A stretch of DNA of 13,605 bases from Promethearchaeota archaeon. Lineage in GTDB: Archaea > Asgardarchaeota > Lokiarchaeia > Sigyniarchaeales > SOKP01. Positions 1-13,605 of this stretch are shown here, one piece after another. The DNA lies in the NCBI GenBank assembly GCA_048938025.1, contig JBHLMP010000012.1, forward strand, positions 1-13,605. The letters are read 5' to 3'. Under the pieces are notes generated by a model. It made no database searches and was not told the origin of the DNA. It worked only from the letters and a program-made list of their open reading frames with translations. Within the stretch, counting starts at the first letter, position 1; each line of letters begins with the position of its first letter. The position numbers were made by a program, and so were the translations under genes.

Positions 1-1779
1 GTCATCAAAATCAGCTCTATAAGATTCCTTATTTACCATTTCTAGAATTTTTTCAGCATAATCATTCTGATTTTCACTAACAGTAATAATTCGTACTTGA
101 ATTGGAGATAACCATGTTTTAAATCCCGGTACAATCTTTTCTTTATTTCGAATAGAACTTTCAATTAAACCCCATAAAACTCTTTCTAATCCACCTGTAG
201 GAGAATTGTGTAATATAATTGGATGTTTAAGTCTACCATCAGAATCAGTAAAGGAAATATTATACTTTTCTCTTTTCTTGCCTTCATTATCAATCATATA
301 CTCCAAAGAACTCTCGACATCAATCTGGTTTGTGGCTAATGTAGCACTTTTATTATGAGCTGAAAGTACATTTCTTTCTAATTTTAATATATAATAGTAG
401 TATCTATCTTCCCATAATTCTAATAGAGCAGGGTATTGTTCTGTTTTAATTAAATCAATAATCCAATCTCTATTTTCCTCATAAAAATCTTGTGTAACTC
501 GAAATATAACATAAGTTTTTACACCTAAATCGTTTTCCAGATTCTTAATTAAATCATATTGCTTTATAAACTCTTCAATTGAAGATTCCAAATCTTTACA
601 CATAGTATGAAGATCAGGCATGATAAAACCACGTAATCTATATAATCCAGATAATTCACCTTCTTGCTCTCTTCGAAAAGCATATTGTTCAAATTCATAT
701 GCTCTCAATGGAAAGTAGTGAGGTTTCAAATTCATTTGTGAAAATAAATCGAATAGAAGGAAATCACTTGCATATCTTAAAAGATATCTATCATTTCCAG
801 ATTCAAGCCAATAACTTCTCGCTGGAAATCGAGCTGTTTGAGCTGTCAATTTTTTATTTTTTACTGTGTACATGATGGGGGTCTCAATAAGTAATGCCCC
901 ATAGTCTATTAATCTATCTTCTACGAAATTTTTGATTAAATTTTTCATAATGACTCCTTTAGTATACCATCTAAAATTTCCAGCATCTGTATTAGGATCA
1001 AAATCTACCAATTCAAAATCTTTCATCACCTTTATATGAGCTGGTTCAAATGATTTATCTATTATTCTAGAACCTAATTCTGATTTCAGGAATGAATAAA
1101 AATCTTGATCTTTTATTTCTTTAGGTGGTATCAGTTCATTATTTTCATCAAATTCTAACTCTATTTCATTACCTGAAGTTGTAATAATTTTAAATACTGA
1201 ATTTTTAACTTGTTCTTCAGGTTTAATAGCTAGTTTCACATCTCTATACATTTCTGCCATTTCATGACCCAAACAGTTAACTTTGAATGATTTGTACCAT
1301 CCAAATGGAGAAAATTTTGCTTCAATACCTCTTTCTTCTAAAAATTTAGCGATTTTAGGACAAACTTCCATAGCATTTTGGTCATTGCTAAGAAATTTGC
1401 TTAGATGTGCCCATGGATAAACTAAGACTTTATCAACACGATACATATCGCGATCTTTAATAAGTGCTAATAATTTTCTTGGTTTTCCTTTAATCTCACC
1501 TTTCTCAATCTTTTTATTGTATCCTCTTATCTCTTCATTTTTTTGGCGAAGCTTTTCTGGAAATCCTGTAATTTGTAGTATTGCTGCTTCAATTTCCTCT
1601 GCTCCTTGGCTAGCAATTAAATCAGTATCATAAGTATCTTGATCTTCTATAGAAACATAAGCTACTAAAACTAATCCATCCATTTTTATGAAATTTTCAG
1701 AAAAATCTTGAGGATTGCTTGTAGCTTCCTTATTTTTAATAACTTCAACGCCTTCAGAATGAATTAATAAAATTTTCAT
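1..1779 (-). CDS. thrS: Threonyl-tRNA synthetase, archaeal type with N-terminal DTD-like editing domain (partial, runs off left edge)
   Basis: Manually translated: ATG at 1779-1777 and 593 codons with no stop to position 1. MKILLIHSEG...YPWAHLS...PFGWYKSF..CLGH (editing domain); FRREQEGELSGLYRLRGFIMPDLH (class II motif 2); ILHNSPTGGLER (motif 3); WLSPIQVRII (start of anticodon-binding domain). SD-like GGGAG at 1790-1786. Confidence 0.97.
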   Translation of the reverse strand, partial: MKILLIHSEGVEVIKNKEATSNPQDFSENFIKMDGLVLVAYVSIEDQDTYDTDLIASQGAEEIEAAILQITGFPEKLRQKNEEIRGYNKKIEKGEIKGKPRKLLALIKDRDMYRVDKVLVYPWAHLSKFLSNDQNAMEVCPKIAKFLEERGIEAKFSPFGWYKSFKVNCLGHEMAEMYRDVKLAIKPEEQVKNSVFKIITTSGNEIELEFDENNELIPPKEIKDQDFYSFLKSELGSRIIDKSFEPAHIKVMKDFELVDFDPNTDAGNFRWYTKGVIMKNLIKNFVEDRLIDYGALLIETPIMYTVKNKKLTAQTARFPARSYWLESGNDRYLLRYASDFLLFDLFSQMNLKPHYFPLRAYEFEQYAFRREQEGELSGLYRLRGFIMPDLHTMCKDLESSIEEFIKQYDLIKNLENDLGVKTYVIFRVTQDFYEENRDWIIDLIKTEQYPALLELWEDRYYYYILKLERNVLSAHNKSATLATNQIDVESSLEYMIDNEGKKREKYNISFTDSDGRLKHPIILHNSPTGGLERVLWGLIESSIRNKEKIVPGFKTWLSPIQVRIITVSENQNDYAEKILEMVNKESYRADFDD

Positions 1780-1905
1780 AGTAATCTCCCTTACTATTTT
1801 TCCTACTAAATCTTTAATGAAAAATCCTAAATATTTTACTTACTTTTGATATATAATTACATTTAAAATTCAAATGAATTATTACTAAAATAATTATCTA
1901 TAAGG

Positions 1906-2526
1906 ATGACTCTTAAAAATATTTTTTCAGAATTAACTGAATCATTAGATAAATTAGATCTCGATAGAGAAGAGATTTTAAAAATTTCTCGGATAATAAT
2001 TCGAGAATGTAGTATTGCGATAAAATCTATCCATAGGAAAGAATTTGATCAATATGAAATAAAAATGCAATTAGTAAAAAATAATCATGAGAAACTGGTA
2101 TCACTGGTTAATAAAACCCCTGGTATTTTTTATAAATACTTGAAAACACCTGAACAAGAATACGCAGAAGCAGTTTCATTTTATTCAATTATCTTAAAAA
2201 AAAAGGTCCCTAGTCCCCATGAAATGAAAATCGATCCATTAAATTTTGCTTTAGGGTTAGCTGATGTTGTAGGAGAACTACGAAGATATGCACTAGATAA
2301 TATAAGAGATTCTCAAGTGAAAGATCTCAATGAAATATTAGAAAGTATGGATGATATTTATTCTAATTTGTTTTCACTCGATTACCCTTCAGGATTAATC
2401 CAAGATCTAAGGCAAAAAACTGATCGAGCAAGATTAATTATTGAAAAAACTAGAGGAGATATATCAATATCTCTTCAGATGAATGATCTTAAAAGATGTA
2501 TTGAAGATAATGTAAAGGAGGATTAA
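1906..2526 (+). CDS. Translin/TRAX (C3PO)-family RNA-binding protein or endoribonuclease
   Basis: All-helical 206 aa protein with QEYAEA and GLADVVGELRR motifs, which carry the acidic catalytic residues typical of archaeal translin/TRAX. Confidence 0.9.
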   Translation: MTLKNIFSELTESLDKLDLDREEILKISRIIIRECSIAIKSIHRKEFDQYEIKMQLVKNNHEKLVSLVNKTPGIFYKYLKTPEQEYAEAVSFYSIILKKKVPSPHEMKIDPLNFALGLADVVGELRRYALDNIRDSQVKDLNEILESMDDIYSNLFSLDYPSGLIQDLRQKTDRARLIIEKTRGDISISLQMNDLKRCIEDNVKED

Positions 2527-2558
2527 TCCTTTCATAATTAATTTAATGAAGATTGAAA

Positions 2559-4118
2559 ATGCCTTTTAATTTTGAAAAGATCAAACGAGAAAGTCTAGTT
2601 AATTATGAAAAAGTATGGCTAGATACAAAAAACCTCTTAAAACTGAAAGGAAAGTATTTCAATTTAGAAAAGAAAGGGAAATCTCATATTGTAAATGATT
2701 TTATCTGTGAAGCAAGGGTAAAGATGATATCTCTAGGATTTGAAGAATTAATACTTCCTATGTTTGTTGAAGAAGAGGAAATCTATAAACAGTATGGTCC
2801 AGAAGCAGCTTTAATTCTTGATAGGCTATTTTATTTAGCAGGGCTTCCCCGTCCTGATATAGGTATTTCTAAAGAAAAAATCAATAAAATTCGAGATGTT
2901 GTACCTAATTTTGAGGATACTGATTCTTTAAAACAAATATTTAGAGATTACAAAAAAGGTAAGATAGAAGCTGATGATTTCATTGAAATTTTTATCACTG
3001 AATTAGAGTTTAAAGAAAGTGAAGCTTCTGAAATAATTGACAAAATATTTCCTGAATTAAAACAATTAAAACCTATACCTACAAAAACAACTTTAAGAAG
3101 TCATACCACGGCATTATGGTTTAAAGTATTGCGTAATTTAATTAGAAAAAAAAGATTACCTTTGCAATATTTTAGTATAGCTCCAAAATTTAGAAGAGAA
3201 CAGAAAATTGATGCAACTCATTTGTATTGTTCTAATACTCTATCAATTGTAATTTTGGCTGAAGAAATTTCTCTAGAAGATTGTCAAAGGATTACTTCAG
3301 AAATTTGTGAAGAAATTGGCTTTAAAAATAGTAGGACCGAAATTAAAAAAGCTACTTCAAAATATTATGCTCCACAAACAGAATTTGAAATTTTTGTTGA
3401 ACATCCAAAAACAAAAAAATGGATAGAAATTGGAGATGGAGGTTTTTATAGCCCTGTTAGTCTTGCTCAATATGAGATTGAATATCCTGTTTTTAATATT
3501 GGTTTTGGAGTAGAGCGAATTTGCATGATAAAAACTGAAATTGAAGATATTAGAAAAATAGTTTATCCCTATTTTTTTGAAGATATATCCTTTTCCGATG
3601 AACAAATTAGTAAAGGTATCAAATATAAAAAGATTCCATTTACTGAAAAAGGAATTGAAATTAAAAATGCTATAATCAGGGCAGCAATTAATCATAAAGA
3701 TGATTCTGCGCCGGTTGAAATTAAAGCTTGGGAGGGTATTATTAGGGATCGAACTATTGAAGTAACTATTTGGGAAAAAGATAAAGGAGTCAAACTTCTT
3801 GGCCCAGCATGTTTAAATAAAATCTGGGTAAAAGAGGGGAACATTTTAGGGTTATCTCAAGAAGAGAATCCCGCTGAAGGTATTGATACAGGAATGACTT
3901 ATTTAGAAGGAATTGCTTCAGAAATGGCCTATAATATTGAAATACTGTTTGATCAAAACAAATATAATTATGAACATAGAGTAAAGATGTGCTATAGAGC
4001 TTCAGAAATCAATATTGAAATTGATGATCTTATTCTAGAGTTCATCCACTCAAAACAAAAAAGAATTGACATAAGAGGACCGGTTTTTATTGGTCTTTCA
4101 TTTATTGTTAAAGAATAA
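2559..4118 (+). CDS. sepS: O-phosphoseryl-tRNA(Cys) synthetase (SepRS), divergent
   Basis: YGPEAALILDRLFYLAGLPRPDIG, TLRSHTT, FRREQ, SKYYAP, YSPVSL, NIGFGVER, KLLGPA and IDIRGPVF match SepRS signature blocks. ATG at 2559 preferred over the track's TTG at 2553. Confidence 0.92.
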   Translation: MPFNFEKIKRESLVNYEKVWLDTKNLLKLKGKYFNLEKKGKSHIVNDFICEARVKMISLGFEELILPMFVEEEEIYKQYGPEAALILDRLFYLAGLPRPDIGISKEKINKIRDVVPNFEDTDSLKQIFRDYKKGKIEADDFIEIFITELEFKESEASEIIDKIFPELKQLKPIPTKTTLRSHTTALWFKVLRNLIRKKRLPLQYFSIAPKFRREQKIDATHLYCSNTLSIVILAEEISLEDCQRITSEICEEIGFKNSRTEIKKATSKYYAPQTEFEIFVEHPKTKKWIEIGDGGFYSPVSLAQYEIEYPVFNIGFGVERICMIKTEIEDIRKIVYPYFFEDISFSDEQISKGIKYKKIPFTEKGIEIKNAIIRAAINHKDDSAPVEIKAWEGIIRDRTIEVTIWEKDKGVKLLGPACLNKIWVKEGNILGLSQEENPAEGIDTGMTYLEGIASEMAYNIEILFDQNKYNYEHRVKMCYRASEINIEIDDLILEFIHSKQKRIDIRGPVFIGLSFIVKE

Positions 4119-4152
4119 TAGATTAATAAAATAGATAATTAAGTGAAATTAG

Positions 4153-4599
4153 ATGAAAAAAAAAATCTTAGTTGCTGGAACTTTCGATATTTTGCATCCA
4201 GGACATATTTTTCTGATAAATGAAGCGGCAAAATTAGGTGATGTATATATTGTAATAGCTACTGACAAAAATCGAGAATTATATTCTGGAGAAGCTCCAA
4301 TTGTGCCTGAGCAACAAAGATTTGAAGTGATGAAAAGTATAAAAAATGTAAAAGATGTAATATTAGGACGACATGATAATGATACACTTAGAACAGTTGA
4401 AGAGATCAATCCAGATATTATACTTCTAGGACCGGATCAAAAATTTAGCGCTCAAAAACTTCAAAATGCTCTTAAAATGAAAGGATTGAATCATATAGAG
4501 GTAAGAAGATTAGAAAAATATTATGATAAATTCAAATTACACAGCTCTAGTCTTATTAAAAAGAAAATATTTGAAAAATATAAGAAGAATCATTCATAA
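4153..4599 (+). CDS. ribL: FAD synthase (archaeal RibL, cytidylyltransferase-like family)
   Basis: GTFDILHPGH (HxGH), PIVPEQQR, PDIILLGPDQ and C-terminal SSSLI; lies directly upstream of the riboflavin kinase. Confidence 0.85.
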   Translation: MKKKILVAGTFDILHPGHIFLINEAAKLGDVYIVIATDKNRELYSGEAPIVPEQQRFEVMKSIKNVKDVILGRHDNDTLRTVEEINPDIILLGPDQKFSAQKLQNALKMKGLNHIEVRRLEKYYDKFKLHSSSLIKKKIFEKYKKNHS

Positions 4600-4609
4600 A
4601 ACTGTAAAT

Positions 4610-5320
4610 ATGTCAGAAGAAAACGAAATTTCACCGGAAAACTATGCAAATTGGTTTGCGTTATATCATTTATGCCAAAATATAGGTAATCAAAAAGCTA
4701 TTCATATTAGTAGTGTAGAATTTGGAAAAGTATTAAATTTGTCTCAACAGACAGCATCAAGAAGGATTAATACCTTAGAAGAAATTGGATGGATTGAGAG
4801 GAAGATTGAAGCAAAAGAGCAAATAATTAGAATAACTAAAAAAGGTGCTGATGCAATACTTGCAATGTATAAAAGTTTAAAACAAATTCTAGAAAGTATC
4901 TTAATTGTAGGGGAGGTTACTACTGGGATAGGAGAGGGTCATTATTATGTCAAAATTAAAAACTATTTTAAGCAGTTTCAAGAAAAACTGAGATTTATTC
5001 CCTTTTTTGGAACATTAAATCTCCAACTAAGCGATCTTAACTATGAATTATTAATGGAAAATTTAAAAAATCGAATCCCTGTTAAAATCGATGGATTTAA
5101 AGATGTCGAGGAGGGACGGACTTTCGGTTCAGTTGATTGTTATTATTGTTTTGTCTCTCGTTTAGATAATCAAGAAAAAAAAATAAATGCAGCAATATTA
5201 AAAATTAAAAGAACACACCATAAGAAAAATATTGTTGAGATCTTAGCAGAACCTTATTTAAGAGATATATTGAATTTACATGATAGTGATAGAGTAAGGA
5301 TTGAATTAATAAAAGAATAA
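4610..5320 (+). CDS. ribK: CTP-dependent riboflavin kinase with N-terminal winged HTH (RbkR-type bifunctional regulator)
   Basis: N-terminal wHTH (SQQTASRRINTLEEIGWIER..IRITKKG), then GEGHYY, GTLN, RTFG, RTHH and EILA..LRDILNLHDSD. ATG at 4610, 10 nt after the ribL stop, preferred over 4523, which overlaps ribL. Confidence 0.92.
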   Translation: MSEENEISPENYANWFALYHLCQNIGNQKAIHISSVEFGKVLNLSQQTASRRINTLEEIGWIERKIEAKEQIIRITKKGADAILAMYKSLKQILESILIVGEVTTGIGEGHYYVKIKNYFKQFQEKLRFIPFFGTLNLQLSDLNYELLMENLKNRIPVKIDGFKDVEEGRTFGSVDCYYCFVSRLDNQEKKINAAILKIKRTHHKKNIVEILAEPYLRDILNLHDSDRVRIELIKE

Positions 5321-5329
5321 TATACTTAC

Positions 5330-5953
5330 TTAATGTTCATTTACTTCTTTTTTTATATGTTTATTAATTTTTACAAATCTAAATATTGCTGTTCCAATTA
5401 CAAGCCACATAAAAACAAAAAGAAGCTCGTTCATAAATCCAAAAAAAGAAGCGATTAGCATTGTTATAAAAATATAAAATAACCTTTCTGATCTGGCCAT
5501 TAACCCAATATCAAAATCTCCCTTAAAGAATACGTAAGCTCTTGCTCTAATATAACTAATCATAATTGAACTTAAAAAAGCTATAGTTACTATTAATTTC
5601 ATATCAAAAAGATTCCAGAGCATCTTATCCCAACAAAAAACCATAAGCCCAAAAAAAATTATAAATTCTGAAAATCTGTCCATAATAGAATCAAAAAAAC
5701 CACCAAATGATGAGCTTTTTCCTGTTAATCTAGCAATAGCACCATCAATTCCATCCATAATCCCGGTAATAAATATAAAAATTGCAAAAAACAAAAGACT
5801 TGAGAATAAAATAAGAGAAATTGCACTAAGTATAGCAAAAAAGAACATAAAGATTGTAGCTAAATTTGGTGTGATACCAATTTTAATGAAGCATTTAGCG
5901 AGAATCTCAACTAAAGGGTGAAAAATATATCGTATCCTAAATTTCGAAGGCAT
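5330..5953 (-). CDS. CDP-alcohol phosphatidyltransferase, probably archaetidylinositol-phosphate synthase-like
   Basis: Signature DGIDGAIAR...GGFFDSIMD (DxxDGxxAR...GxxxDxxxD), GITPN, SYIRARA, GLMARSER; multiple hydrophobic helices. Confidence 0.9.
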   Translation of the reverse strand: MPSKFRIRYIFHPLVEILAKCFIKIGITPNLATIFMFFFAILSAISLILFSSLLFFAIFIFITGIMDGIDGAIARLTGKSSSFGGFFDSIMDRFSEFIIFFGLMVFCWDKMLWNLFDMKLIVTIAFLSSIMISYIRARAYVFFKGDFDIGLMARSERLFYIFITMLIASFFGFMNELLFVFMWLVIGTAIFRFVKINKHIKKEVNEH

Positions 5954-6146
5954 TTTATCAAATTTTCTTGATTTTTTGAAGATTTTATTATACTAAACAT
6001 TTGAAATTCACATTTAAATATCTTAATATTGATTTTTTAATTTAAAATATTATTATATACGAGATCATGATTATAATATAATTTTTTTATTTTGGTACTT
6101 TTAAAATATATAATTAATTTAAATTTTTAATAAAAAGTGGGAATTC

Positions 6147-6455
6147 TTGAAATTACGGTTAATCCTAAAAACAAGAACTAAGAAAAATAAAGAAATTTGC
6201 TTGAAATTTAACATAGCACCCAGTAAACATATTGGTTTTATTAATTTTATTAATTTAGCTCTTAAACAAGATAAACCTATTACTATATCTTTTGAAAAAA
6301 TTTCTAAAACTGGTCAAAAAGAAGAAAGTAAGATTTATGGTGAATTTAAATTTACTGGTAAAGACCCAGCAAGATTAGAACAATTAGAAGAGGATATACA
6401 AGAAGCAGAAAAGAGAAGAAAAAAGCAACAAGAGAGAAGAAAACATAAACAATAA
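6147..6455 (+). CDS. Hypothetical basic protein with C-terminal charged coiled coil
   Basis: 102-codon ORF with TTG start, purine-rich sense strand, divergent from the phosphatidyltransferase; no recognisable family motif. Confidence 0.7.
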   Translation: MKLRLILKTRTKKNKEICLKFNIAPSKHIGFINFINLALKQDKPITISFEKISKTGQKEESKIYGEFKFTGKDPARLEQLEEDIQEAEKRRKKQQERRKHKQ

Positions 6456-6484
6456 TTAAAATACAAATTAATGGATTAATCTCT

Positions 6485-7249
6485 TTAAAATAATGATATA
6501 AAACCTAATTTTATTAAATTTTTAGAAATATTATAGACTTTTTCTGGTTCGATACTCAACTCTTTTGCTATTAATTCAATTGATTTTTTCCCATCAATCT
6601 GATAGAAAACTTTATGAGAAGTTTCACCCGTTAAGTAAAATTTAGGGTTAATTTTTTTGGATATTGTGAAATGTGGTATATGTTTATAATATTCTGGTAA
6701 TGAAAGATTCTTTTCTTCTATTTCATCAACCCTAGCAATTACTGAATTTGCAGTATCTTCGATCTTAAATCCTAAACTATTAAGAACATCATTAACGTTA
6801 TGATTAGACTTTGGTTTAATTTTATCTTGCTCTTCATTTATGTATCGCGTAATTTCCTGTTCAAATGATTTAAAAGTATCTTTTCTCCCACTCCACTCTA
6901 ATATTTGATTATAATTGTATTGTTGTAAAAATGTTTCAGAAATTTTTTTTAAAACACTTTGAACAGTTAATCCCTTGGAATGTTCATCATATGTCGCTAA
7001 AAATATTAAATTTGGAATGCTTGAGTCTCTCAGAAAAGATACTTTTAAGTTATTATTTGCTAATTTTAATTCACTGATATTTCCTAAATCCTCAAAGGAA
7101 TCTGAAAATGAATTTAATGCTGAAAAAAAGCCTGATGCCATAATGAGGTTATCTCCTTGAGTAAAAAGAGTTTGTGAACTAGAAGGATCACTAAAGCTCT
7201 TGGATAATAACGGTAAGCCATCCCGAATAATCACAATATCGCAAATCAT
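6485..7249 (-). CDS. Longin-like domain + C-terminal winged-helix protein (Asgard eukaryotic-signature-like)
   Basis: N-terminal pattern IVII.DGLPLL...SGFFSALNSF...beta strands...LKKISETFLQQY...F..EI resembles Asgard longin-like folds; C-terminal QIDGKKSIELIAKELSIEPEKVYNISKNLIKLGFI is a wHTH. Confidence 0.75.
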   Translation of the reverse strand: MICDIVIIRDGLPLLSKSFSDPSSSQTLFTQGDNLIMASGFFSALNSFSDSFEDLGNISELKLANNNLKVSFLRDSSIPNLIFLATYDEHSKGLTVQSVLKKISETFLQQYNYNQILEWSGRKDTFKSFEQEITRYINEEQDKIKPKSNHNVNDVLNSLGFKIEDTANSVIARVDEIEEKNLSLPEYYKHIPHFTISKKINPKFYLTGETSHKVFYQIDGKKSIELIAKELSIEPEKVYNISKNLIKLGFISLF

Positions 7250-7329
7250 AATCTGAGAGCAGTTAATTGTAAAAATTTAAAAAGATTGAAGAATATTCTC
7301 ATCGAATCATTAAAATCTAAATAATAGTG

Positions 7330-7372
7330 AAAAAAAAAGAGTTATAATACTTCTGTAATACCAGAGTAATAT
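7330..7372 (-). terminator. Probable terminator of the HTH module
   Basis: Minus strand after the 7385 stop: TACTCTG-GTATTA-CAGAAGTA hairpin (one bulge), followed by a T9 run (A-run 7330-7338 on +). Confidence 0.55.
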
Positions 7373-7384
7373 GATTTGTTAAAT

Positions 7385-7777
7385 TTATTCTCTTATAAAA
7401 ATAGTATCAAAACTCTCTCCAATAGCTCGAGCAATCTTGAACAATTCTTTTTCGTTAAAATTATTTAATAATTGCTCGTCATTTAAATCCTTTAACATTA
7501 TTAATCTCTCTGTTTTAACACCCGATTTTTCAGAAAACTCTTCTAATTCATCCAATGTTTTACCTCCTAATATATCTTTAATTATAGGTTCAAAATAGAA
7601 AATTTCCTCTATTGTTTTATCAAAAATTTCTGCAATTTTTAGAGATAATGTTAAGGAAGGATTATATGATCCTTTCTCTAAAAAATAAATAGTTTGGCGA
7701 GAAACACCTACTAAGTCAGCTAATTCTTGCTGTTTAAGATTTCTCTCATCTCTCAGTTCTTTTATCCTTGTAACCAA
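7385..7777 (-). CDS. XRE/Cro-C1 (HTH_3) transcriptional regulator with C-terminal degenerate second HTH
   Basis: RIKELR...QQELADLVGVSRQTIYFLEKGSYNPSLTLSLKIAEIF is a canonical XRE HTH; TTG start. Confidence 0.92.
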   Translation of the reverse strand: MVTRIKELRDERNLKQQELADLVGVSRQTIYFLEKGSYNPSLTLSLKIAEIFDKTIEEIFYFEPIIKDILGGKTLDELEEFSEKSGVKTERLIMLKDLNDEQLLNNFNEKELFKIARAIGESFDTIFIRE

Positions 7778-7860
7778 TTTCTTCCTAAATTTCAGTGTTT
7801 CCTAACCTATTTAATATTGTATTTAAATTAAAAATAAAATAAGAAAATAAAAACTTAAAA

Positions 7861-8709
7861 TTAAACCATTTTAAAAAGATCTTCGATTCTACAATTCAAT
7901 ATTTCAGCAATTTTATATGCTAATGTTAAACTAGGATTATATCTACCTTCTTCCAAATAATTTATGGTTTGAATGGGGACTCCTACTTTTTCAGCTAATT
8001 GAGCAGTTGACATATTATTCTTTTCTCTCAATTCTTTTATTGATGTCTTTAATTTTTCCCCTTCTCGCATTTTTGAGAGAATATAGCTAATGAAGTTATC
8101 AAATGCGAGCTCTTCAGGTTTGAATATTTTATCTTCTAATCCAGAGGGTACAGCAGAATATTTTGTCATCATTTCTTTTATTTTATTTTCGATGATATAG
8201 GGTTCTTTGAGACCTGGGATATATCCCTCTGGTCGTAAGATGCCCTTTTGAGCACTTGAAACAGCAGCAGCTGATCCAGCAGTTTCGATCTTAACTGTAA
8301 ATGTTTTAAACATTCTATCAAAAACACCATTTGCTATGTTAATATTTTGAATTCGACTATAAGGAACAGTTGCTCTCACTTGTGTAAAAACACCATGATT
8401 AATAACTATGTTATCTTCTGATATTTTGTAAGAGAATTTATGTACATAAGCGGTGTAATACCAAATTTGGATTATCATTATTATTGTAAATGGAATTATA
8501 AATACAAATAAAATTACTAATAATATCACAATGTTAGTGAAATTTTCAGGATTAATTCCATCATCAGTAACAGCAACCCAAGAAAGGTACATTGCTAATG
8601 TAGTAGCTGCACTAAGTATCAAAAGAAAAATTAATCCCCCCTTTAATACTTCTTTATTTCTATAACTGTTAGAAATCGTCCCTTCGTATGAAAAATTTTC
8701 TTTATTCAT
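7861..8709 (-). CDS. Membrane protein: 2 TM + bacterial PH domain (bPH_2/YdbS-like) fused to C-terminal XRE HTH
   Basis: Two hydrophobic helices, then YKISEDNIVINHGVFTQVRATVPYSRIQNINIANGVFDRMFKTFTVKIETAG (bPH_2 pattern), then IKELRE...LAEKVGV..QTINYLEEGRYNPSLTLAYKIA. GGAGG SD at 8720-8716, 6 nt before the ATG. Confidence 0.9.
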   Translation of the reverse strand: MNKENFSYEGTISNSYRNKEVLKGGLIFLLILSAATTLAMYLSWVAVTDDGINPENFTNIVILLVILFVFIIPFTIIMIIQIWYYTAYVHKFSYKISEDNIVINHGVFTQVRATVPYSRIQNINIANGVFDRMFKTFTVKIETAGSAAAVSSAQKGILRPEGYIPGLKEPYIIENKIKEMMTKYSAVPSGLEDKIFKPEELAFDNFISYILSKMREGEKLKTSIKELREKNNMSTAQLAEKVGVPIQTINYLEEGRYNPSLTLAYKIAEILNCRIEDLFKMV

Positions 8710-8747
8710 TTTTTTCCTCCTTTTTTTTAAAAAATTTTAATTCATTC

Positions 8748-8769
8748 TATGTTAAATAAACTTAACATA
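8748..8769. promoter_or_regulatory. Palindromic operator 1 (TATGTTAA-N6-TTAACATA)
   Basis: Perfect 8-bp inverted repeat with 6-nt spacer, lying between the TATA box and the start of the PH-HTH gene. Confidence 0.8.
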
Positions 8770-8771
8770 AA

Positions 8772-8779
8772 TATTTAAA
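8772..8779 (-). promoter_or_regulatory. TATA box for the PH-HTH/HTH module
   Basis: TTTAAATA on the minus strand, preceded by an A-rich BRE-like stretch and immediately upstream of operator 1. Confidence 0.55.
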
Positions 8780-8813
8780 TGTTTTGATCTTTGAAAAATC
8801 TCAATTTAAAAGC

Positions 8814-8831
8814 GTTAATAAAACTTAACAT
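8814..8831. promoter_or_regulatory. Palindromic operator 2 (GTTAA-N6-TTAACAT)
   Basis: Same core and spacer length as operator 1, both share AAACTTAACAT; offset is exactly 63 bp. Confidence 0.7.
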
Positions 8832-9016
8832 TTGATTTTTTTGAAAAATGTAAAATTAATTTGAAATTGATTTTCCAATTTCTATAAAGACAAAAAGGAT
8901 TACTCAGAAAAACTTACGCCTTTTTATATGAAAAACTAGAAGTTCTAATGTAATTAATACAAAATTATTAAAATGAAAATTCTTAACGACTTTTTTATTT
9001 TGGGTGATTACAAAGA

Positions 9017-9517
9017 GTGTATCAAAGAGTTATCATATTTGTAGATCATGCTAATATTTTTCATAATGTTGCAAAATTAAATATCAGAATCAATTATAAA
9101 AAATTAAAAGAAATCCTAACAAAAAATAATCACTTAGTAGGCGTTTTTACATATATGGGAATTCCCGATAAGCTATTTCCCAAAAAACGTAATTTTCTTA
9201 ATTATTTAAATTCGCAAGGATTTATCATTCAGCCTAAACCTATTAAAATATCACCTGATGGTAAAAAAGAGCAAAAAGGTGTTGATATATTCATTTATAA
9301 GGATATTGTTGAGTTAGCTGAGGAAGATGCATATGATAAAGCTATTTTAGTAAGTGGAGATGCTGATTTCGTTGATGTGGTAAAAACTATAAAAAAGTAT
9401 CACAAAAGAATCGAGATCTGGAGCTTTAGGAAATCTCTTTCGAATCTATTAAAAGATGAAGTAGGAAAGGAGAACGTTCATTATATTGATGATATTCTAA
9501 ATCAAATTAAATTTTAA
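9017..9517 (+). CDS. NYN-domain (LabA/DUF88, PIN-like) putative ribonuclease
   Basis: IFVDHANI, EQKGVDIFIYKD and LVSGDADF motifs with the acidic residues intact; GTG start with SD GGTGAT at 9003-9008. Confidence 0.92.
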   Translation: MYQRVIIFVDHANIFHNVAKLNIRINYKKLKEILTKNNHLVGVFTYMGIPDKLFPKKRNFLNYLNSQGFIIQPKPIKISPDGKKEQKGVDIFIYKDIVELAEEDAYDKAILVSGDADFVDVVKTIKKYHKRIEIWSFRKSLSNLLKDEVGKENVHYIDDILNQIKF

Positions 9518-9537
9518 ACTATAAAAAATTATCTAAG

Positions 9538-9545
9538 TTTATATA
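9538..9545 (+). promoter_or_regulatory. TATA box upstream of the putative ncRNA
   Basis: TTTATATA ending 24 nt before the first paired base (9569) of the predicted RNA rod, which is normal archaeal TATA-to-TSS spacing. Confidence 0.55.
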
Positions 9546-9568
9546 ATTATTCTAAGATCAATTATTGT

Positions 9569-9728
9569 TTCATTGATAGAAAACCCTCCTTATAGAGAGA
9601 ATAATAAGAAGAGTTGCAAAAAGCAATTTAATGTTCGCTAAATTTTTTCCCTTCGATAAAAACGACTCTTCTAAAATATTCTCTCGCTTATAAGAGTTAC
9701 TTAGTGAATGAATATCCTTATTTTTTTT
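9569..9728 (+). ncRNA. Putative structured non-coding RNA (long rod of about 140 nt), family unknown
   Basis: Nested helices: 9569-9576/9701-9708 (8 bp, 2 G-U), 9589-9594/9689-9694 (6 bp), 9595-9603/9677-9685 (9 bp), 9607-9616/9663-9672 (10 bp, 1 G-U), 9625-9630/9639-9644 (6 bp, loop containing UUCG). Upstream TATA box; T8 run at 9721-9728. Confidence 0.62.
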
Positions 9729-9825
9729 AAAAAAATCAAAGTTAATAAAAAATGGACTAATCAAAAAATATATACAAATATTAATAATAATCTCTATAAA
9801 CTTTTAAAAAATTGAGTTGATAAAA

Positions 9826-10392
9826 GTGTCAGAGGAAAAATATAGATATCGTTATTATTATAAAGAAAAATATGAGGCAGCTATAGGAACATTTGCTGTC
9901 GCTATAGTATTTCTCTTTGTTGCGATTCTTTCTTTAGCTTTAAACGCATTTGATATTAACTTCATCGGATTAAGAGATTGGGGGTACTGGATGTTCATTC
10001 CGGCTTTCTTTATCTTTATTGGTGGATTTAACCAACTTTATACTAACTATAAATATAAACAGGTAGTTAAAAATGCTTTAGCCCAAAGAAATTTTCAAGG
10101 AACTCATAAACTTGAACATATTGCACTAGAGATAGGAATGAGACCAAAAGATTTGCTTAGGGTTTTATTAGATTTACGAAATCGTGGTGTAGTCCAATAC
10201 AGTTTTAGTCCTGATACGGGAGAAATAATTTTAGGAAAAGGAATTTCATATACCCAATCAAAAGAATTTACTCCTCCAGAAAAAAAACTAGAAGCTCCTA
10301 TTCAAACAGAAGGCAAGAGCTACTGTGTTTATTGTGGTCATAAATTAGAAGCAAGAGCAAATTTTTGTCCAAATTGTGGTTCAAAGCTATAA
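9826..10392 (+). CDS. Membrane protein: 2 TM + winged-helix + C-terminal zinc ribbon
   Basis: Two TM helices; KLEHIALEIGMRPKDLLRVLLDLRNRGVVQYSFSPDTGEI (wHTH/PCI-like); CVYCG...CPNCG. In-frame GTG at 9826, preceded by GAGTTGA, preferred over TTG at 9817. Confidence 0.85.
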   Translation: MSEEKYRYRYYYKEKYEAAIGTFAVAIVFLFVAILSLALNAFDINFIGLRDWGYWMFIPAFFIFIGGFNQLYTNYKYKQVVKNALAQRNFQGTHKLEHIALEIGMRPKDLLRVLLDLRNRGVVQYSFSPDTGEIILGKGISYTQSKEFTPPEKKLEAPIQTEGKSYCVYCGHKLEARANFCPNCGSKL

Positions 10393-10393
10393 G

Positions 10394-10421
10394 TTTTTTA
10401 TTAATTAATAAATTTTTTTTT
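10394..10421 (+). terminator. T-rich terminator region between convergent genes
   Basis: T6 and T9 runs flanking an AT-only palindrome (10397-10412) right after the 10392 stop. Confidence 0.4.
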
Positions 10422-10515
10422 AATTATTCGCTATGTAACTTAGTCCTATAAAACATTTTTAAAAGAGTAAAAAAAATTAAATTTTTAAAATTAAACTCTA
10501 AATTCTCATTTGAAA

Positions 10516-11931
10516 TTAACTAGCAGAAACTTTTTGTTTTTTCTCTGAATGCATTTTCTTCGCATCTTCTGTTAATTGGTCATATTTTTCTTTATTGATC
10601 GGGAAATAACTCATAGCTATAATTCCAATAATTAGAAACACTATTGGAAAAATTACCATGAGACTTCGTAATCCAAACTCTACAGCATATTCTGCTGATT
10701 TAAGATCGAAGATATTCCAGTCTGAGCCGATAAATACCAATCCTATTGATAAGAAGACTACCACATTAGAGAATTTGACTACAAAACCATTTATTCCGTA
10801 GAAATTACCCTCTCTTCTAACTCCTGTATTTAACTCATCCTCATCTATAATTGCACTAAGCGTTATATCTCTCACAATTAATATTCCTGCTAGCCCAAAT
10901 CCTAAAATAAAGAAAAATACAAACCCTAAGACTACGCCCTTAATGAACATGAGAGGTAGTAAAGTTATTATAAACATAATCAAAGATAAAATATAAGATC
11001 CTTTAGCACCAAGTTTGTTTACTATTAGGCGCCATGGGAATACAAAGATAGCTGCTGATACAAAACCAACTCCAAGGATGAGAGAAATTATATCGGCATC
11101 TGAAACGCCCAAACATATTGTTCCATAAATCGGCATGATTGTAGGAATCATATTGAATGCAAACCACAATCCAAAGTTCCCAATAACGTACAATTTGAAA
11201 GATTTATGTCCAAAAGTATATTTTAATGCTTGTTTAAATGTTGGAGTTTTTTCATAATCCTTCGAAAATTCAACTCGTTCTTTTAATCCAAATTTGATAA
11301 ATATAAAAGCTCCAATTGCACAGATAATTGAAATAACAATTGCAGCAAATATATATTGCATATAAGTATCACGAATTGGGATATCTTCACTTGTGAAGCT
11401 CTCAATAATGAATCCTGGTAATAGGAAAGCAACCAATAATGAAAGAACTTGAAAAAATTGAATTGAATTACTTGCCTTAGCTCTTTGGTCTAAATCTCGA
11501 AACATCTCTGGAAACAAACTCGTTTGATTTAATGAATACATTGTATAAAATAACTCCCAAATGATAATTATAATTAAGAAGTAAGCAAAAGCTAATGGTT
11601 TAGGTTCTAAAGGTGCAGTAAATAAAAGAACATTTAAGACAGTTAGAGGAATAATACCTATGATGATGAATGGTTTTCTACGACCCATTTTAAGATGTGA
11701 TCGATCAGAAATCGCTCCTAGCATTGGGTCATTAATAGCGTTCCAGATTGCCCAGATGATAAAACCAAGAGACATCCATACTGCGGGTAAGTCTACTATG
11801 GAAAAATAGAAAGTGAAAATTAAGAAAGTAAAGAATTGTAGAAAGATGACATCAGTAAAACCAGCAAAACTGTACAACACCGCTTTTTTTAAAGTATATT
11901 CTTCTTCAGTACCTTTCTTTTCTTCCGTCAT
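10516..11931 (-). CDS. MFS transporter, glycoside-pentoside-hexuronide (MelB-like) family
   Basis: WNAINDPMLGAISDR, GRRKPF, IDEDELNTGVRREG motifs and about 12 hydrophobic helices. Confidence 0.93.
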   Translation of the reverse strand: MTEEKKGTEEEYTLKKAVLYSFAGFTDVIFLQFFTFLIFTFYFSIVDLPAVWMSLGFIIWAIWNAINDPMLGAISDRSHLKMGRRKPFIIIGIIPLTVLNVLLFTAPLEPKPLAFAYFLIIIIIWELFYTMYSLNQTSLFPEMFRDLDQRAKASNSIQFFQVLSLLVAFLLPGFIIESFTSEDIPIRDTYMQYIFAAIVISIICAIGAFIFIKFGLKERVEFSKDYEKTPTFKQALKYTFGHKSFKLYVIGNFGLWFAFNMIPTIMPIYGTICLGVSDADIISLILGVGFVSAAIFVFPWRLIVNKLGAKGSYILSLIMFIITLLPLMFIKGVVLGFVFFFILGFGLAGILIVRDITLSAIIDEDELNTGVRREGNFYGINGFVVKFSNVVVFLSIGLVFIGSDWNIFDLKSAEYAVEFGLRSLMVIFPIVFLIIGIIAMSYFPINKEKYDQLTEDAKKMHSEKKQKVSAS

Positions 11932-12007
11932 TTTAATTCCTTTTTATAATTTTTTTGATAAAAGTACTAAATATATGTTAAAATTATTAATAAATTGTTT
12001 GTAGTAT

Positions 12008-12370
12008 TTATAAATAAATATTTTTCCTTAAATGTGGAAGAACTAATAATTCTACTAAATTCACAGAGGCTTTTTTTTTAAATAGCTGGTAAATCTTACT
12101 TAAATCAAATTGAAATTTGGGTTGATACATAATTTCTAAAGGATTTGCTAGCAAAGAATTATCTGACCAATTCTTCGGAAATAACATAAGTTTTGAAGAA
12201 TCCGATAGTTTAGATAAATCAAAATTACAAAATCCTACTTTTAATCTAATTTCTGAACTTGTCTCGGAGTTATTGAAGTATAAGGATTCAAAGGACAATT
12301 TTTCTGCAATTTCGGATTTAATAATTTCATCTTTAATTGCATACGAAAACAAATATCCAATAGAAATCAA
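12008..12370 (-). CDS. Possible hypothetical protein (conflicts with the antisense ORF)
   Basis: 120-codon ORF with TTG start and no motif; overlaps a longer open + frame. Confidence 0.25.
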   Translation of the reverse strand: MISIGYLFSYAIKDEIIKSEIAEKLSFESLYFNNSETSSEIRLKVGFCNFDLSKLSDSSKLMLFPKNWSDNSLLANPLEIMYQPKFQFDLSKIYQLFKKKASVNLVELLVLPHLRKNIYL

Positions 12371-12605
12371 TCACAAATTTAATGATACTGTTCCCTCTGA
12401 GAATTACCTCCAAGAGAGTAATATTTTAGAATGCAAATCTCATGATACAAGAGAAGAATATCTTATTATTTCAAATGATATTCATTCTATCTTATCTAAT
12501 TGCTCTAATTTAACGAATAATCAAAAATTAGAGTTTTGTAATAGTCAGAGATACTTTATGAAATTATTTTTAAAAGATATGCTGATTAAAATTAAAAGTA
12601 AATAG
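12273..12605 (+). CDS. Possible hypothetical protein or gene remnant
   Basis: Frame is stop-free from 12126 to the TAG ending 12605, but the first canonical start is TTG at 12273; no family motif. Confidence 0.35.
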   Translation: MKYKDSKDNFSAISDLIISSLIAYENKYPIEINHKFNDTVPSENYLQESNILECKSHDTREEYLIISNDIHSILSNCSNLTNNQKLEFCNSQRYFMKLFLKDMLIKIKSK

Positions 12606-12648
12606 TACAAGTCAAAAATAAAATAAAAAGTAATAAAAAAAAACACAT

Positions 12649-13350
12649 TTAAGTTTTAAGCCCCAGATAGAGCCATATTGCATAAGTCATCATGACAACT
12701 CTTATAAAGCCAATGCCTATACCTAATGGAAGTATTGAATCCAAAGCTCCAGTTAAGACAAAGATAATAAATGCAATAGATAAGAATAGAAATTTCCTTC
12801 TTAATTCGCCTGTTGCTTGTTTAGCTTTTATTAAAAAGCCAATTCCTAAGAATACTAAAGTAGAAACTAAAAAAACAGCAACTAATAAAAATGTTGGATG
12901 CGTTCTGACAAAACTGGCATCTATTAAATCTTCCCCAGGGTTATCAAGCGTAAATTCGAATGAATGCAATGTATTAAACCATAGAAACATCTCAAATATA
13001 ATACCTAATGCTAAAAGGATTGCTACAATAATCCATTTTCCTTTAGGCCATATGAGTTCGCCCCCCAAATACATTGAGACAAGTAAAGCTGGAGCAACCC
13101 ATGTATAACTTAAAATCGAATAAACCTGAATTGGATCTATATTTTTTCCTGTAGTAAGCACAAAAATGAAATCAGTGGAAGGTCCTAACCATAAAAGACC
13201 CGTAAAGACCATAGTAAGAGCAGCAACACCAAGGAGTTTAGCTTTTAATTTTATCGCTTTATATAAAGAAAACAATCCGAATAGAGTTGCTGACAGAACA
13301 ATACCAGCCGCAGTTATCCCATCCAACAGTCCTTCAGGAGTAATAGCCAT
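12649..13350 (-). CDS. Stand-alone seven-transmembrane protein (HisKA_7TM-like topology)
   Basis: Seven hydrophobic segments, a long loop between TM4 and TM5 and a basic loop KAKQATGELRRK between TM5 and TM6. ATG at 13350, with GGTG upstream, preferred over TTG at 13389. Confidence 0.85.
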   Translation of the reverse strand: MAITPEGLLDGITAAGIVLSATLFGLFSLYKAIKLKAKLLGVAALTMVFTGLLWLGPSTDFIFVLTTGKNIDPIQVYSILSYTWVAPALLVSMYLGGELIWPKGKWIIVAILLALGIIFEMFLWFNTLHSFEFTLDNPGEDLIDASFVRTHPTFLLVAVFLVSTLVFLGIGFLIKAKQATGELRRKFLFLSIAFIIFVLTGALDSILPLGIGIGFIRVVMMTYAIWLYLGLKT

Positions 13351-13462
13351 TTTTAAATTAACACCATTTTTTATAAAATAATTATTCAATTGATAGAAGT
13401 ATATAATTATTTATTATCATTTTATTTATAATTATATTTTTTAGTGACAATCGAAAAAATAT

Positions 13463-13605
13463 TTAAAGTCTAGAGTAAAAATAGGTGGTAAATTCTTTAT
13501 TTCCCTTCTTTTGATTTAATTTACAATCAAGCTTCAAATATGAATTTAAACCATTTAATGGATATTTATGTGAAACAATAATTGCGCCCTTTTTTGCTGT
13601 AGAAA
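13463..13605 (-). CDS. 3' end of a probable class I SAM-dependent methyltransferase (partial, enters from right edge)
   Basis: Manual translation STAKKGAIIVSHKYPLNGLNSYLKLDCKLNQKKGNKEFTTYFYSRL*. KKGAIIVSHKYP resembles the LKPGAxIVS strand of small methyltransferases, and TYFY resembles the terminal strand. Confidence 0.6.
   Translation of the reverse strand, partial: STAKKGAIIVSHKYPLNGLNSYLKLDCKLNQKKGNKEFTTYFYSRL

Follow-up and report, generated by a model that had tools for sequence, protein, structure and literature searches.

A predicted family of small structured RNA genes in two genera of Promethearchaeota, one member of which lies behind a NYN-domain nuclease gene

The DNA considered here is a stretch of 13,605 nucleotides (nt), hereafter the window, from a Promethearchaeota archaeon (assembly GCA_048938025.1, contig JBHLMP010000012.1, positions 1 to 13,605 of the forward strand). 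It carries a gene for a NYN-domain protein and, further on, a gene for a 191-residue protein with a C-terminal zinc ribbon, and the spacer between these two genes holds the element with which this report is concerned. The original prediction placed here an unannotated, rod-shaped RNA with its own promoter and terminator, and proposed that it forms a dedicated module with the nuclease in an Asgard archaeon. Our analysis indicates that the hairpin of 9567-9728 is real and is a gene, predicted from its sequence to be that of an independently transcribed small non-coding RNA, and that the RNA, judged in the same way, is a previously undescribed family within the small structured non-coding RNA genes of archaea. 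The host was correctly recognised: Promethearchaeota is a phylum in the kingdom Promethearchaeati, which we take to be the Asgard archaea. The features of the locus, with the evidence for each, are as follows.

9017..9517, plus strand: NYN-domain gene, 166 amino acids (Pfam PF01936, E 1.6e-21, 77.7 bits against a cut-off of 24.2)
9538..9545, plus strand: TATA box of the RNA gene, TTTATATA, 26 nt before the start of the covariance-model match at 9564 and 24 nt before the first helix
9567..9728, plus strand: transcript predicted for this lineage, some 160 nt long, with a putative start at G9567 and a putative end in the T8 run
9567..9594, plus strand: 5' leader, consisting of a U-rich start and a C/U box, CCCUCC, at 9584-9589; alignable across paralogue types
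9569-9576 with 9701-9708, plus strand: outer helix UUCAUUGA/UUAGUGAA (sequence)
9589-9594 with 9689-9694, plus strand: helix CUUAUA/UAUAAG (sequence)
9595-9603, plus strand: 5' strand of helix P1, GAGAGAAUA, pairing with 9677-9685 (91.3% paired over 65 sequences)
9607-9616, plus strand: 5' strand of helix P2, AGAAGAGUUG, pairing with 9663-9672 (core GAGAAG/CUUCUC nearly invariant)
9617..9662, plus strand: apical region, with UUCGCUAA at 9634-9641 and a U6-CCC-UUCG tract at 9643-9655, followed by an A-rich stretch
9625-9630 with 9639-9644, plus strand: innermost helix AAUUUA/UAAAUU, enclosing AUGUUCGC (sequence)
9663-9672, plus strand: 3' strand of P2, CGACUCUUCU (pair counts and comparison of groups)
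9677-9685, plus strand: 3' strand of P1, UAUUCUCUC (pair counts in the 65-sequence alignment)
9686..9720, plus strand: 3' extension peculiar to this lineage, pairing with the leader (genomes G000, G012, G043, G056 and partly G063)
9721..9728, plus strand: T8 run, the likely transcription end in the window's lineage (sequence)

The five nested helices of 9567-9728, the TATA box and the T8 run all lie where the original prediction had put them, and its three G-U pairs, spread across the five helices, would indeed be A-C mismatches on the minus strand. RNAfold recovers the nested helices both in the 191-nt stretch 9538-9728 and in the predicted transcript. Comparison with shuffled sequences gave a divided answer. 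The 191-nt stretch has a folding z of -2.30 (4 of 200 shuffles equally good) and the predicted transcript, taken as 9567-9722, a z of -3.77 (0 of 200), so that the expected stability is present in the window; however, the minus strand yields about the same values (-2.57 and -3.22), and the orthologue from genome G020, at z -0.69, is no more stable than its own shuffles. Since both strands fold about equally well, folding energy is uninformative as to strand, and the result for G020 indicates that stability as such is not the conserved property.

Several other ways of reading the spacer were tried and set aside. No reading frame in the RNA is conserved across the orthologues, among which insertions and deletions of 1-6 nt occur; a seven-codon open reading frame (ORF) of some orthologues was rejected as coding sequence, being broken in others by single-nucleotide indels, and a minus-strand ORF of 64 codons has no Pfam match. 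Tandem Repeats Finder detected no tandem repeats within 9538-9728, nor does the RNA contain a direct-repeat family. A pairing between the U run at the 5' end and the A run of the loop was rejected because orthologues with C in the U run lack the compensating change. A kink-turn between P1 and P2 was likewise discarded on reading of the sequence, there being no G-A beside the stem on the unbulged strand and no tandem G-A pairs.

Homologues were readily found. In a BLAST search with 211 nt against 40 relatives, ten genomes of the same genus each gave one match, of 69-78% identity, situated between the orthologues of the NYN gene and the zinc-ribbon gene; G012 gave 93%. In its own 3.5-Mb assembly the RNA is single-copy by BLAST. 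Covariance models were then employed, one (R1) built from 12 orthologues and the other (R2) from 42 sequences; the window RNA is matched over 9564-9693 with 97.5 bits by R1 and 92.9 bits by R2. With R1, half of the genus (27 of 54 genomes) proved to carry the RNA, and weaker second matches appeared as well, including G000:C14:52108-52241 in the window's own genome.

The plus strand is favoured by G-U pairs, model scores and promoter position. G-U pairs that fit the plus strand only occur at pairs 43-147 (8 sequences), 44-146, 38-152 and 59-134 (5 sequences each) of the 65-sequence alignment A5, and R2 scores the minus strand of the window at 35.6 bits against 92.9 for the plus strand. TATA boxes, sought with at most one mismatch to the consensus TTTAWATA and measured from their first base to the model start, lie at 26 nt in 33 of the 65 copies, at 27 nt in 4, at 30 nt in 13 and at 38 nt in 4; with a further copy at 25 nt, the total comes to 55 of 65. 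On the reverse strand of the same copies TATA boxes have no preferred distance. Most of the 65 copies thereby exhibit a feature of trans-acting archaeal small RNAs (sRNAs), a promoter of their own at a fixed distance. A conserved ATTG sits at the expected spacing from the TATA box, and the fixed distance makes G9567 the likely start. At the other end, a T run of at least five begins at the model end, directly after the UUCUCUC of P1, in 22 of the 65 copies. U-tracts terminate archaeal transcription, according to PMC8716108. As a test of strand, T runs proved uninformative (48 of 65 forward, 50 of 65 in the reverse control), which is attributable to the AT-rich DNA.

The structure common to the homologues is smaller than that visible in the window. 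Its core comprises two helices (GAGAGAAUA/UAUUCUCUC and AGAAGAG/CUCUUCU) and the UUCGCUAA loop motif. Counting over A5 was based on 18 pairs, eight from P1 and ten from P2, which are the third and fourth of the five helices. Of the 1156 cells for these two helices in the 65 homologues 84.4% are paired, compared with 50.3-61.9% after the partner has been shifted by 1-3 columns. Changes on both sides are seen at 12 of the 18 pairs against 6.3 in shuffles, and 0 of 500 shuffles reached the observed values on four of five measures, figures that are inflated in that A5 was fitted to the structure and its rows are related. The helix cores hardly vary (pair 54-139 is AU in 65 of 65, pair 40-150 GC in 62), and covariation is found at the helix ends: at the closing pair of P1, 45-145 (UA 33, CG 3, AU 1, GC 1), and at the end pairs of P2, 52-141 (UA 30, CG 6, GC 6) and 59-134 (AU 28, GC 5, GU 5, UA 1). 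The inner extension of P2 differs in sequence from group to group with pairing retained. Together with the G-U pairs and the one-strand TATA distance, this covariation upholds the claim that the structure belongs to RNA and not to a DNA inverted repeat.

The other three helices, the outer two and the innermost, are restricted to the window's subclade (G000, G012, G043, G056 and partly G063), where a 40-nt 3' extension pairs with the leader and G056 shows one compensating change. The description 'rod-shaped' consequently holds in the window's lineage, where the predicted length is about 160 nt, but not family-wide, only two of the five helices being conserved; in most relatives the RNA would be about 120 nt long, and local apical helices are not conserved. 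In the orthologue alignment the conserved order is a block resembling a transcription factor B recognition element and TATA box, ATTG with a U run, the C/U box, GAGAGAAU and GAGAAGA, then an apical stretch with CAUUCGCUAAUC and UUUCCCUUCGAAAAAA, followed by CUCUUCUC and UUCUCUC, directly after which most aligned genomes have a T run. The architecture shared by all members is GAGAGAAU, a short internal loop, GAGAAG, 45-75 variable nt, CUUCUC, 4-5 nt and AUUCUCUC; that is, a U-rich 5' leader, two stacked helices (GAGAGAAU/AUUCUCUC and GAGAAG/CUUCUC) and a large apical region specific to each type.

These types are paralogues. The window's genome has three diverged loci, detected by model and relaxed pattern and each syntenic across species: type A, that of the window, and types B and B2, about 7 kb apart at G000:C14:52108-52241 (plus strand) and G000:C14:45090-45216 (minus strand; loci L049 and L198). 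Paralogue B is flanked by an acyl-CoA synthetase gene on one side and a convergent gene for an AN1 zinc-finger protein on the other, and a gene with CdhD and FeS domains, belonging to the acetyl-CoA decarbonylase/synthase complex, lies 800 nt downstream of one of the two G000:C14 paralogues; no NYN gene is present near paralogue B and this cdhE-like gene, as we term the gene called CdhD plus FeS by Pfam and those like it. In a second genus the orthologous RNA is directly upstream of that cdhE-like gene, at about 150-200 nt. Type C, of about 117 nt, begins ACAACUUUGAUCAC, lacks the UUCGC motif, lies beside small-GTPase-like genes (IFKIIVIGDPAVGKTSLL) and has a convergent downstream gene; its loci (L064, L071, L202-L210 and L216, about 1501-1617 in each) come from many genomes of the genus, some of them without a NYN-linked copy. 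The motif UCGC(U/A)A hardly varies in the window-type RNA, in type B and in both forms of the second genus, and absent from type C. B, B2 and C each have their own TATA box, and across types the leaders can be aligned while the apical regions are type-specific.

Within the genomes searched, the RNA family is limited to two genera belonging to a single family of Promethearchaeota (f1). R2 detected it in 50 of 135 genomes of this family: in 33 of 53 of the window's genus (g1) plus the window's own genome, in 16 of 42 of the second genus (g14) and in 0 of 39 from eleven other genera. A phylum-wide sample of 125 genomes from 26 other families gave none, although both R2 searches used the stricter filters of Infernal, so that weak members may be missed. 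A prokaryote-wide pattern scan, with one genome per species, returned at least 80 loci, of which seven match the model, all in genomes already found; among the matches listed, these seven are labelled Promethearchaeota archaeon (five), Candidatus Hermodarchaeota archaeon (one) and uncultured archaeon (one). In viral contigs, 0 of 53 pattern matches fit the model. Those in the IMG/VR loci L237, L238, L241, L244, L246 and about 25 more have an identical 97-nt span, which we regard as a shared conserved element unrelated to the RNA given the absence of model matches.

Established RNA classes were not encountered, as the original prediction had judged by eye for transfer RNA, C/D and H/ACA RNA. 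Rfam 15 yields no match at gathering score in the whole window or in 8 loci of other family members, the best E-value for 9400-9900 in E-value mode being 1.4, and ARAGORN finds no tRNA or tmRNA gene in the window. With the standard C, D and ACA box motifs, C/D boxes are present in 0 of 65 family members (there is no C box anywhere) and an ACA near the 3' end in only 3 of 65, T runs following P1 instead.

The NYN gene accompanies the RNA of the window's type to a marked degree: its orthologue is directly upstream in 29-30 of 37 loci from the two genera. In g1, 23 of 27 type-A loci have it (66-100% identity), that of G068 is in part N-masked, and those of G012, G043 and G022 lack it; the zinc-ribbon gene is downstream in 26 of the 27. 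In g14 the orthologue (59-63% identity) is directly upstream in 6 of 10 loci, the RNA standing without it in L054, L059, L060 and L063, and the downstream gene is the cdhE-like one instead of that for the zinc-ribbon protein. The zinc-ribbon gene, found in 45 of 54 genomes, allowed the states of the g1 locus to be tabulated between constant flanks and a constant zinc-ribbon promoter: both NYN and RNA 24, RNA only 3, NYN only 0, and neither in 16 of the 16 examined. In the latter 16 the model scores at best 16 bits with filters off and no NYN ORF is present at the locus. At one locus that has lost both (L234, genome G051), a relic of the RNA (GTTATTCGCTTGG, TTATTTCTCTAAC, ATTCGCT and TTCTCT) persists some 100-160 nt before the zinc-ribbon gene, which indicates deletion, not primary absence.

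The zinc-ribbon protein tree (one gene, 41 rows, with 13 of its 38 inner branches open) requires six changes of the NYN-plus-RNA state, at least four of them forced by well-supported branches, and nests the 'neither' state at least twice among carriers (supports 100/98 and 93/85), a pattern that points to repeated joint loss. The whole block has been lost at least twice, NYN alone three times and RNA alone never. The one possible NYN-only case is G011, where the contig breaks 30 nt after the stop codon. Covariation at the helix ends and this persistent neighbourhood bear out the conservation beside NYN orthologues that was to be expected of a genuine RNA gene. The link to NYN is real but not exclusive: genomes with other RNA types only lack a NYN orthologue (the best NYN matches of G009 and G006 are at 44%), and other NYN paralogues, of 50-60% identity, have no RNA nearby at the five loci tested with filters off. 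NYN matches at E 1e-30 or better exist in 49 of 54 genomes of the genus.

As to the protein itself, its residues D10, D90, D115 and D117 do not vary among the 11 sequences aligned, nine of them orthologues and two paralogues, which suggests that the nuclease is probably active. The nearest solved structure, 2qip (E 6.1e-10), is itself uncharacterised, and the PADLOC model for LabA-like nucleases matches at E 2.7e-14 over the nuclease domain only. An 11-nt perfect complementarity connects 9297-9307 of the NYN ORF with 9711-9721, the non-conserved tail of the RNA just before T8, and may be due to chance.

We consider a standalone trans-acting small RNA, or scaffold of a ribonucleoprotein, to be the most likely reading, and place about half of our confidence in it. 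The observations on which it is based are homology, two helices with covariation at their ends, strand, the TATA box at a fixed distance and paralogue loci in unrelated contexts; B, B2 and C stand in such contexts and seven loci keep the RNA without NYN. The RNA would act in trans, the sequence-invariant double helix serving as docking site for a postulated protein partner, while the single-stranded C/U-rich leader and apical tract may make contact with RNA rich in purines, for example ribosome-binding regions. Of the 65 leaders, 42 have a C/U box (genome background 0.11), as do 40 of the 65 apical regions (background 0.21), the rows not being independent. The NYN gene would be an ancestral upstream neighbour travelling with the window paralogue; it may process or degrade the RNA, which would not need it.

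A number of results weigh against such a reading. C/U boxes are absent from several paralogue types, and they do not match well the Shine-Dalgarno type enriched in the window's genome (GGTGA, AGGTG, GAGGT); the 3' end of 16S rRNA was not found in the assembly with a short motif, so the anti-Shine-Dalgarno sequence is deduced from enriched upstream motifs only. Complementarity to the starts of the neighbouring NYN and zinc-ribbon genes is no better than in shuffles (mean z -0.35 over 23 loci and +0.61 over 25), as measured by RNAduplex with 26 type-A RNAs and mononucleotide shuffles, a procedure in which unconstrained duplexes are mostly long, loop-ridden artefacts. For the cdhE-like start it beats background weakly, 0.04-0.41 of 300 starts being as good over 10 loci; in two zinc-ribbon controls 0.46 and 0.96 of the background were as good. 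Genome-wide, antisense matches of apical region and leader are at chance, the best apical ones being 14-mers at E 0.37. The docking protein for the invariant helix is a postulate. Among 21 sequencing runs listed, 20 hold the stretch wholly or in part and none is recorded as RNA. The covariation figures, coming from related rows aligned to the structure, are supportive and not proof. Finally, NYN and RNA have been lost jointly at least twice and NYN is never seen without the RNA, which the role of mere neighbour does not predict.

This last pattern is the strength of the main rival explanation, in our view a real possibility though less likely than not, in which NYN and RNA constitute a two-part module: the PIN-like ribonuclease would be restrained by the RNA, guided by it or engaged in processing it, and the RNA, expressed from the strong promoter behind the nuclease gene, would be an antitoxin or inhibitor, a cognate substrate or a guide. 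Association persists despite different downstream genes (23 and one N-masked of 27 loci in g1, 6 of 10 in g14), the locus states and the nesting of 'neither' among carriers speak for gain or loss as one unit, with the L234 relic as a trace, and RNA-only orphans without any nuclease-only locus are what would be expected of an RNA restraining a toxic nuclease. The invariant acidic residues of a probably active nuclease and the PADLOC match are in keeping with this, as is the broken P1 in the RNA of G022, where NYN is lacking. On the other hand, the RNA of G012 is retained at 93% identity without NYN; paralogues B, B2 and C have no NYN neighbour, and the genomes restricted to those types have no orthologue elsewhere. 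Only three NYN-only losses stand against zero RNA-only losses, and as a target for deletion the RNA is smaller by a factor of four; the tree, built from one gene, is weak, and G011 may be a NYN-only genome. Antisense matches to the NYN start region are lacking, and known RNA-antitoxin systems differ in having repeats and in the RNA not lying downstream. The 'dedicated' module of the original prediction is therefore retained as regards insertion and deletion as a unit and given up as regards dedication, in view of a multi-paralogue family without NYN neighbours, the seven RNA-only loci and the NYN paralogues without RNA. A broader and more tentative proposal is that the invariant GA/CU helix is a handle for NYN-type (PIN-like) nucleases, either in an RNA-restrained nuclease (a new toxin-antitoxin-like or defence type with a structured, non-repetitive RNA) or in an RNA-directed ribonuclease to which paralogues would supply loops in trans; we think this doubtful. 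Relevant to it are the losses, which affect NYN and RNA jointly or NYN alone, and the distant NYN paralogues in most of the genus.

Two further explanations dispense with a trans-acting RNA. In one, which we judge very unlikely, the RNA is a cis-acting leader or attenuator of the downstream gene, GAGAG pairing either with the leader C/U box or with the 3' CUCUC and T run and so setting read-through. The RNA is co-oriented with the downstream gene at the type A (zinc-ribbon) and g14 (cdhE-like) loci, the T run after P1 in 22 of 65 copies would suit an attenuator, and on reading of the sequence GAGAA could pair with UUCUC of the leader instead of forming P1, as could GAGAAA with the leader UUUCUC in paralogue B. 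However, a conserved zinc-ribbon promoter block separates RNA and gene, and block and gene are intact in all 16 RNA-less genomes examined; the genes after paralogues B and C are convergent, the g14 copies have no T run directly after P1, and no riboswitch family matches. It is the persistence of the downstream gene's own promoter, and the convergent genes at two paralogue types, that make the cis role unlikely. The other explanation, to which we attach scarcely any weight, is a DNA-level feature: an inverted-repeat protein-binding site, a decayed miniature inverted-repeat transposable element (MITE) or a chance hairpin in the AT-rich spacer of a genome of 29% G+C. Equal folding of both strands and arm cores as invariant as binding sites would fit, but the signals are strand-specific, and a DNA repeat is unlikely for this reason: G-U pairs and covariation fit the plus strand only and the TATA box keeps its distance on one strand only. 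Furthermore, 45-75 nt separate the arms and include conserved single-stranded motifs, and none of the 53 viral-contig pattern matches fits the model. A MITE or other dispersed repeat was rejected, there being one BLAST copy and three diverged loci, each syntenic across species, without dispersed near-identical copies.

The same evidence separates the RNA from known systems: it lacks the testable defining features of type III toxin-antitoxin RNAs, C/D and H/ACA RNAs, MITEs and riboswitch leaders. In type III toxin-antitoxin systems (ToxIN, CptIN, TenpIN) a tandem-repeat RNA precedes a toxin of ToxN/AbiQ type and neutralises it by binding. Common to these and the present locus are a ribonuclease gene beside a strongly expressed non-coding RNA gene (expression being predicted here) and a patchy distribution with gain and loss as a unit, RNA-only orphans and no nuclease-only locus. 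The window RNA differs in not being a tandem repeat array, in lying downstream of the nuclease gene and in having NYN-free paralogues, and the nuclease is a PF01936 NYN (PIN-like) protein, not ToxN-like. The C/D and H/ACA guide sRNAs are comparable as small-RNA families with an invariant module, here resembling a protein-binding one, and paralogue-specific parts; the near-complete absence of their boxes, the want of a tandem G-A kink-turn and the lack of Rfam matches set the present family apart.

Of the Methanosarcina mazei sRNAs, sRNA154 and sRNA41 offer the closest likeness in working principle. The review PMC5867862 describes anti-ribosome-binding-site loops in both, and reports sRNA41 to act on, or repress, mRNAs of the acetyl-CoA decarbonylase/synthase complex. 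Each, as described there, is a spacer gene with its own promoter and a structured product with pyrimidine-rich single-stranded stretches, and the context of sRNA41 has a parallel in the second-genus members and paralogue B, which adjoin acetyl-CoA decarbonylase/synthase genes by the Pfam assignment of the neighbour. The resemblance stops at principle, for there is no relation in sequence or Rfam, and neither the invariant GA/CU double helix nor the existence of several paralogues is matched in that description. PF01936 NYN/LabA proteins occur in all domains of life according to the PIN-like classification of PMC5499597, which gives their function as unknown, with neither nuclease activity nor substrate studied. 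The protein encoded before the RNA is a single-domain member of this class (group NYN.COG1432 there) with the four acidic residues, nearest to 2qip; a conserved RNA gene as neighbour, such as the one considered here, is not described in that paper. Listings and abstracts on Asgard and lokiarchaeal non-coding RNA and on archaeal NYN/LabA proteins contained nothing describing such an RNA.

The surroundings of the RNA gene remain to be described. Between it and the zinc-ribbon gene, at 9742-9775 and about 40-75 nt before the latter, lies a conserved block, GTTAATAAAAAATGGACTAATCAAAAAATATATAC (TTATAAAAATTGGACTATTCAAGAAAT in relatives), which is also present in the 16 genomes without NYN and RNA; with GGACTA after a TATA-like part, it is probably the promoter of the zinc-ribbon gene with a regulator site. 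On the other side, at 7861-8709 on the minus strand, a bacterial-type PH domain (bPH_2) is fused to an XRE-type helix-turn-helix (HTH), beside a stand-alone HTH gene at 7385-7777, also minus. This pair is immediately upstream of NYN in the window's subclade only, most relatives having a nucleotidyltransferase gene. Other genes of the window are of archaeal housekeeping character and encode a threonyl-tRNA synthetase with archaea-specific editing domain, a PheRS core and a CTP-dependent riboflavin kinase. Between tRNA synthetase genes, at 1906-2526 on the plus strand, there is a Translin-family protein (PF01997, E 3.4e-11), a family that takes part in RNA processing in eukaryotes.

With a covariance model, a promoter geometry and a paralogue structure, the family can be searched for directly in cultures and metatranscriptomes, and among RNA families specific to a group of Asgard archaea it would be the first to be well defined. 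The co-inherited RNA gene 50 nt behind one group of NYN orthologues is a first candidate RNA partner for a poorly understood class of nucleases, and supplies a candidate RNA for binding, cleavage or inhibition by NYN. Should the tie to NYN not be functional, the family would still be unusual in the near-invariance of both strands of two helices, which points to a putative partner that binds double-stranded RNA in a sequence-specific manner.

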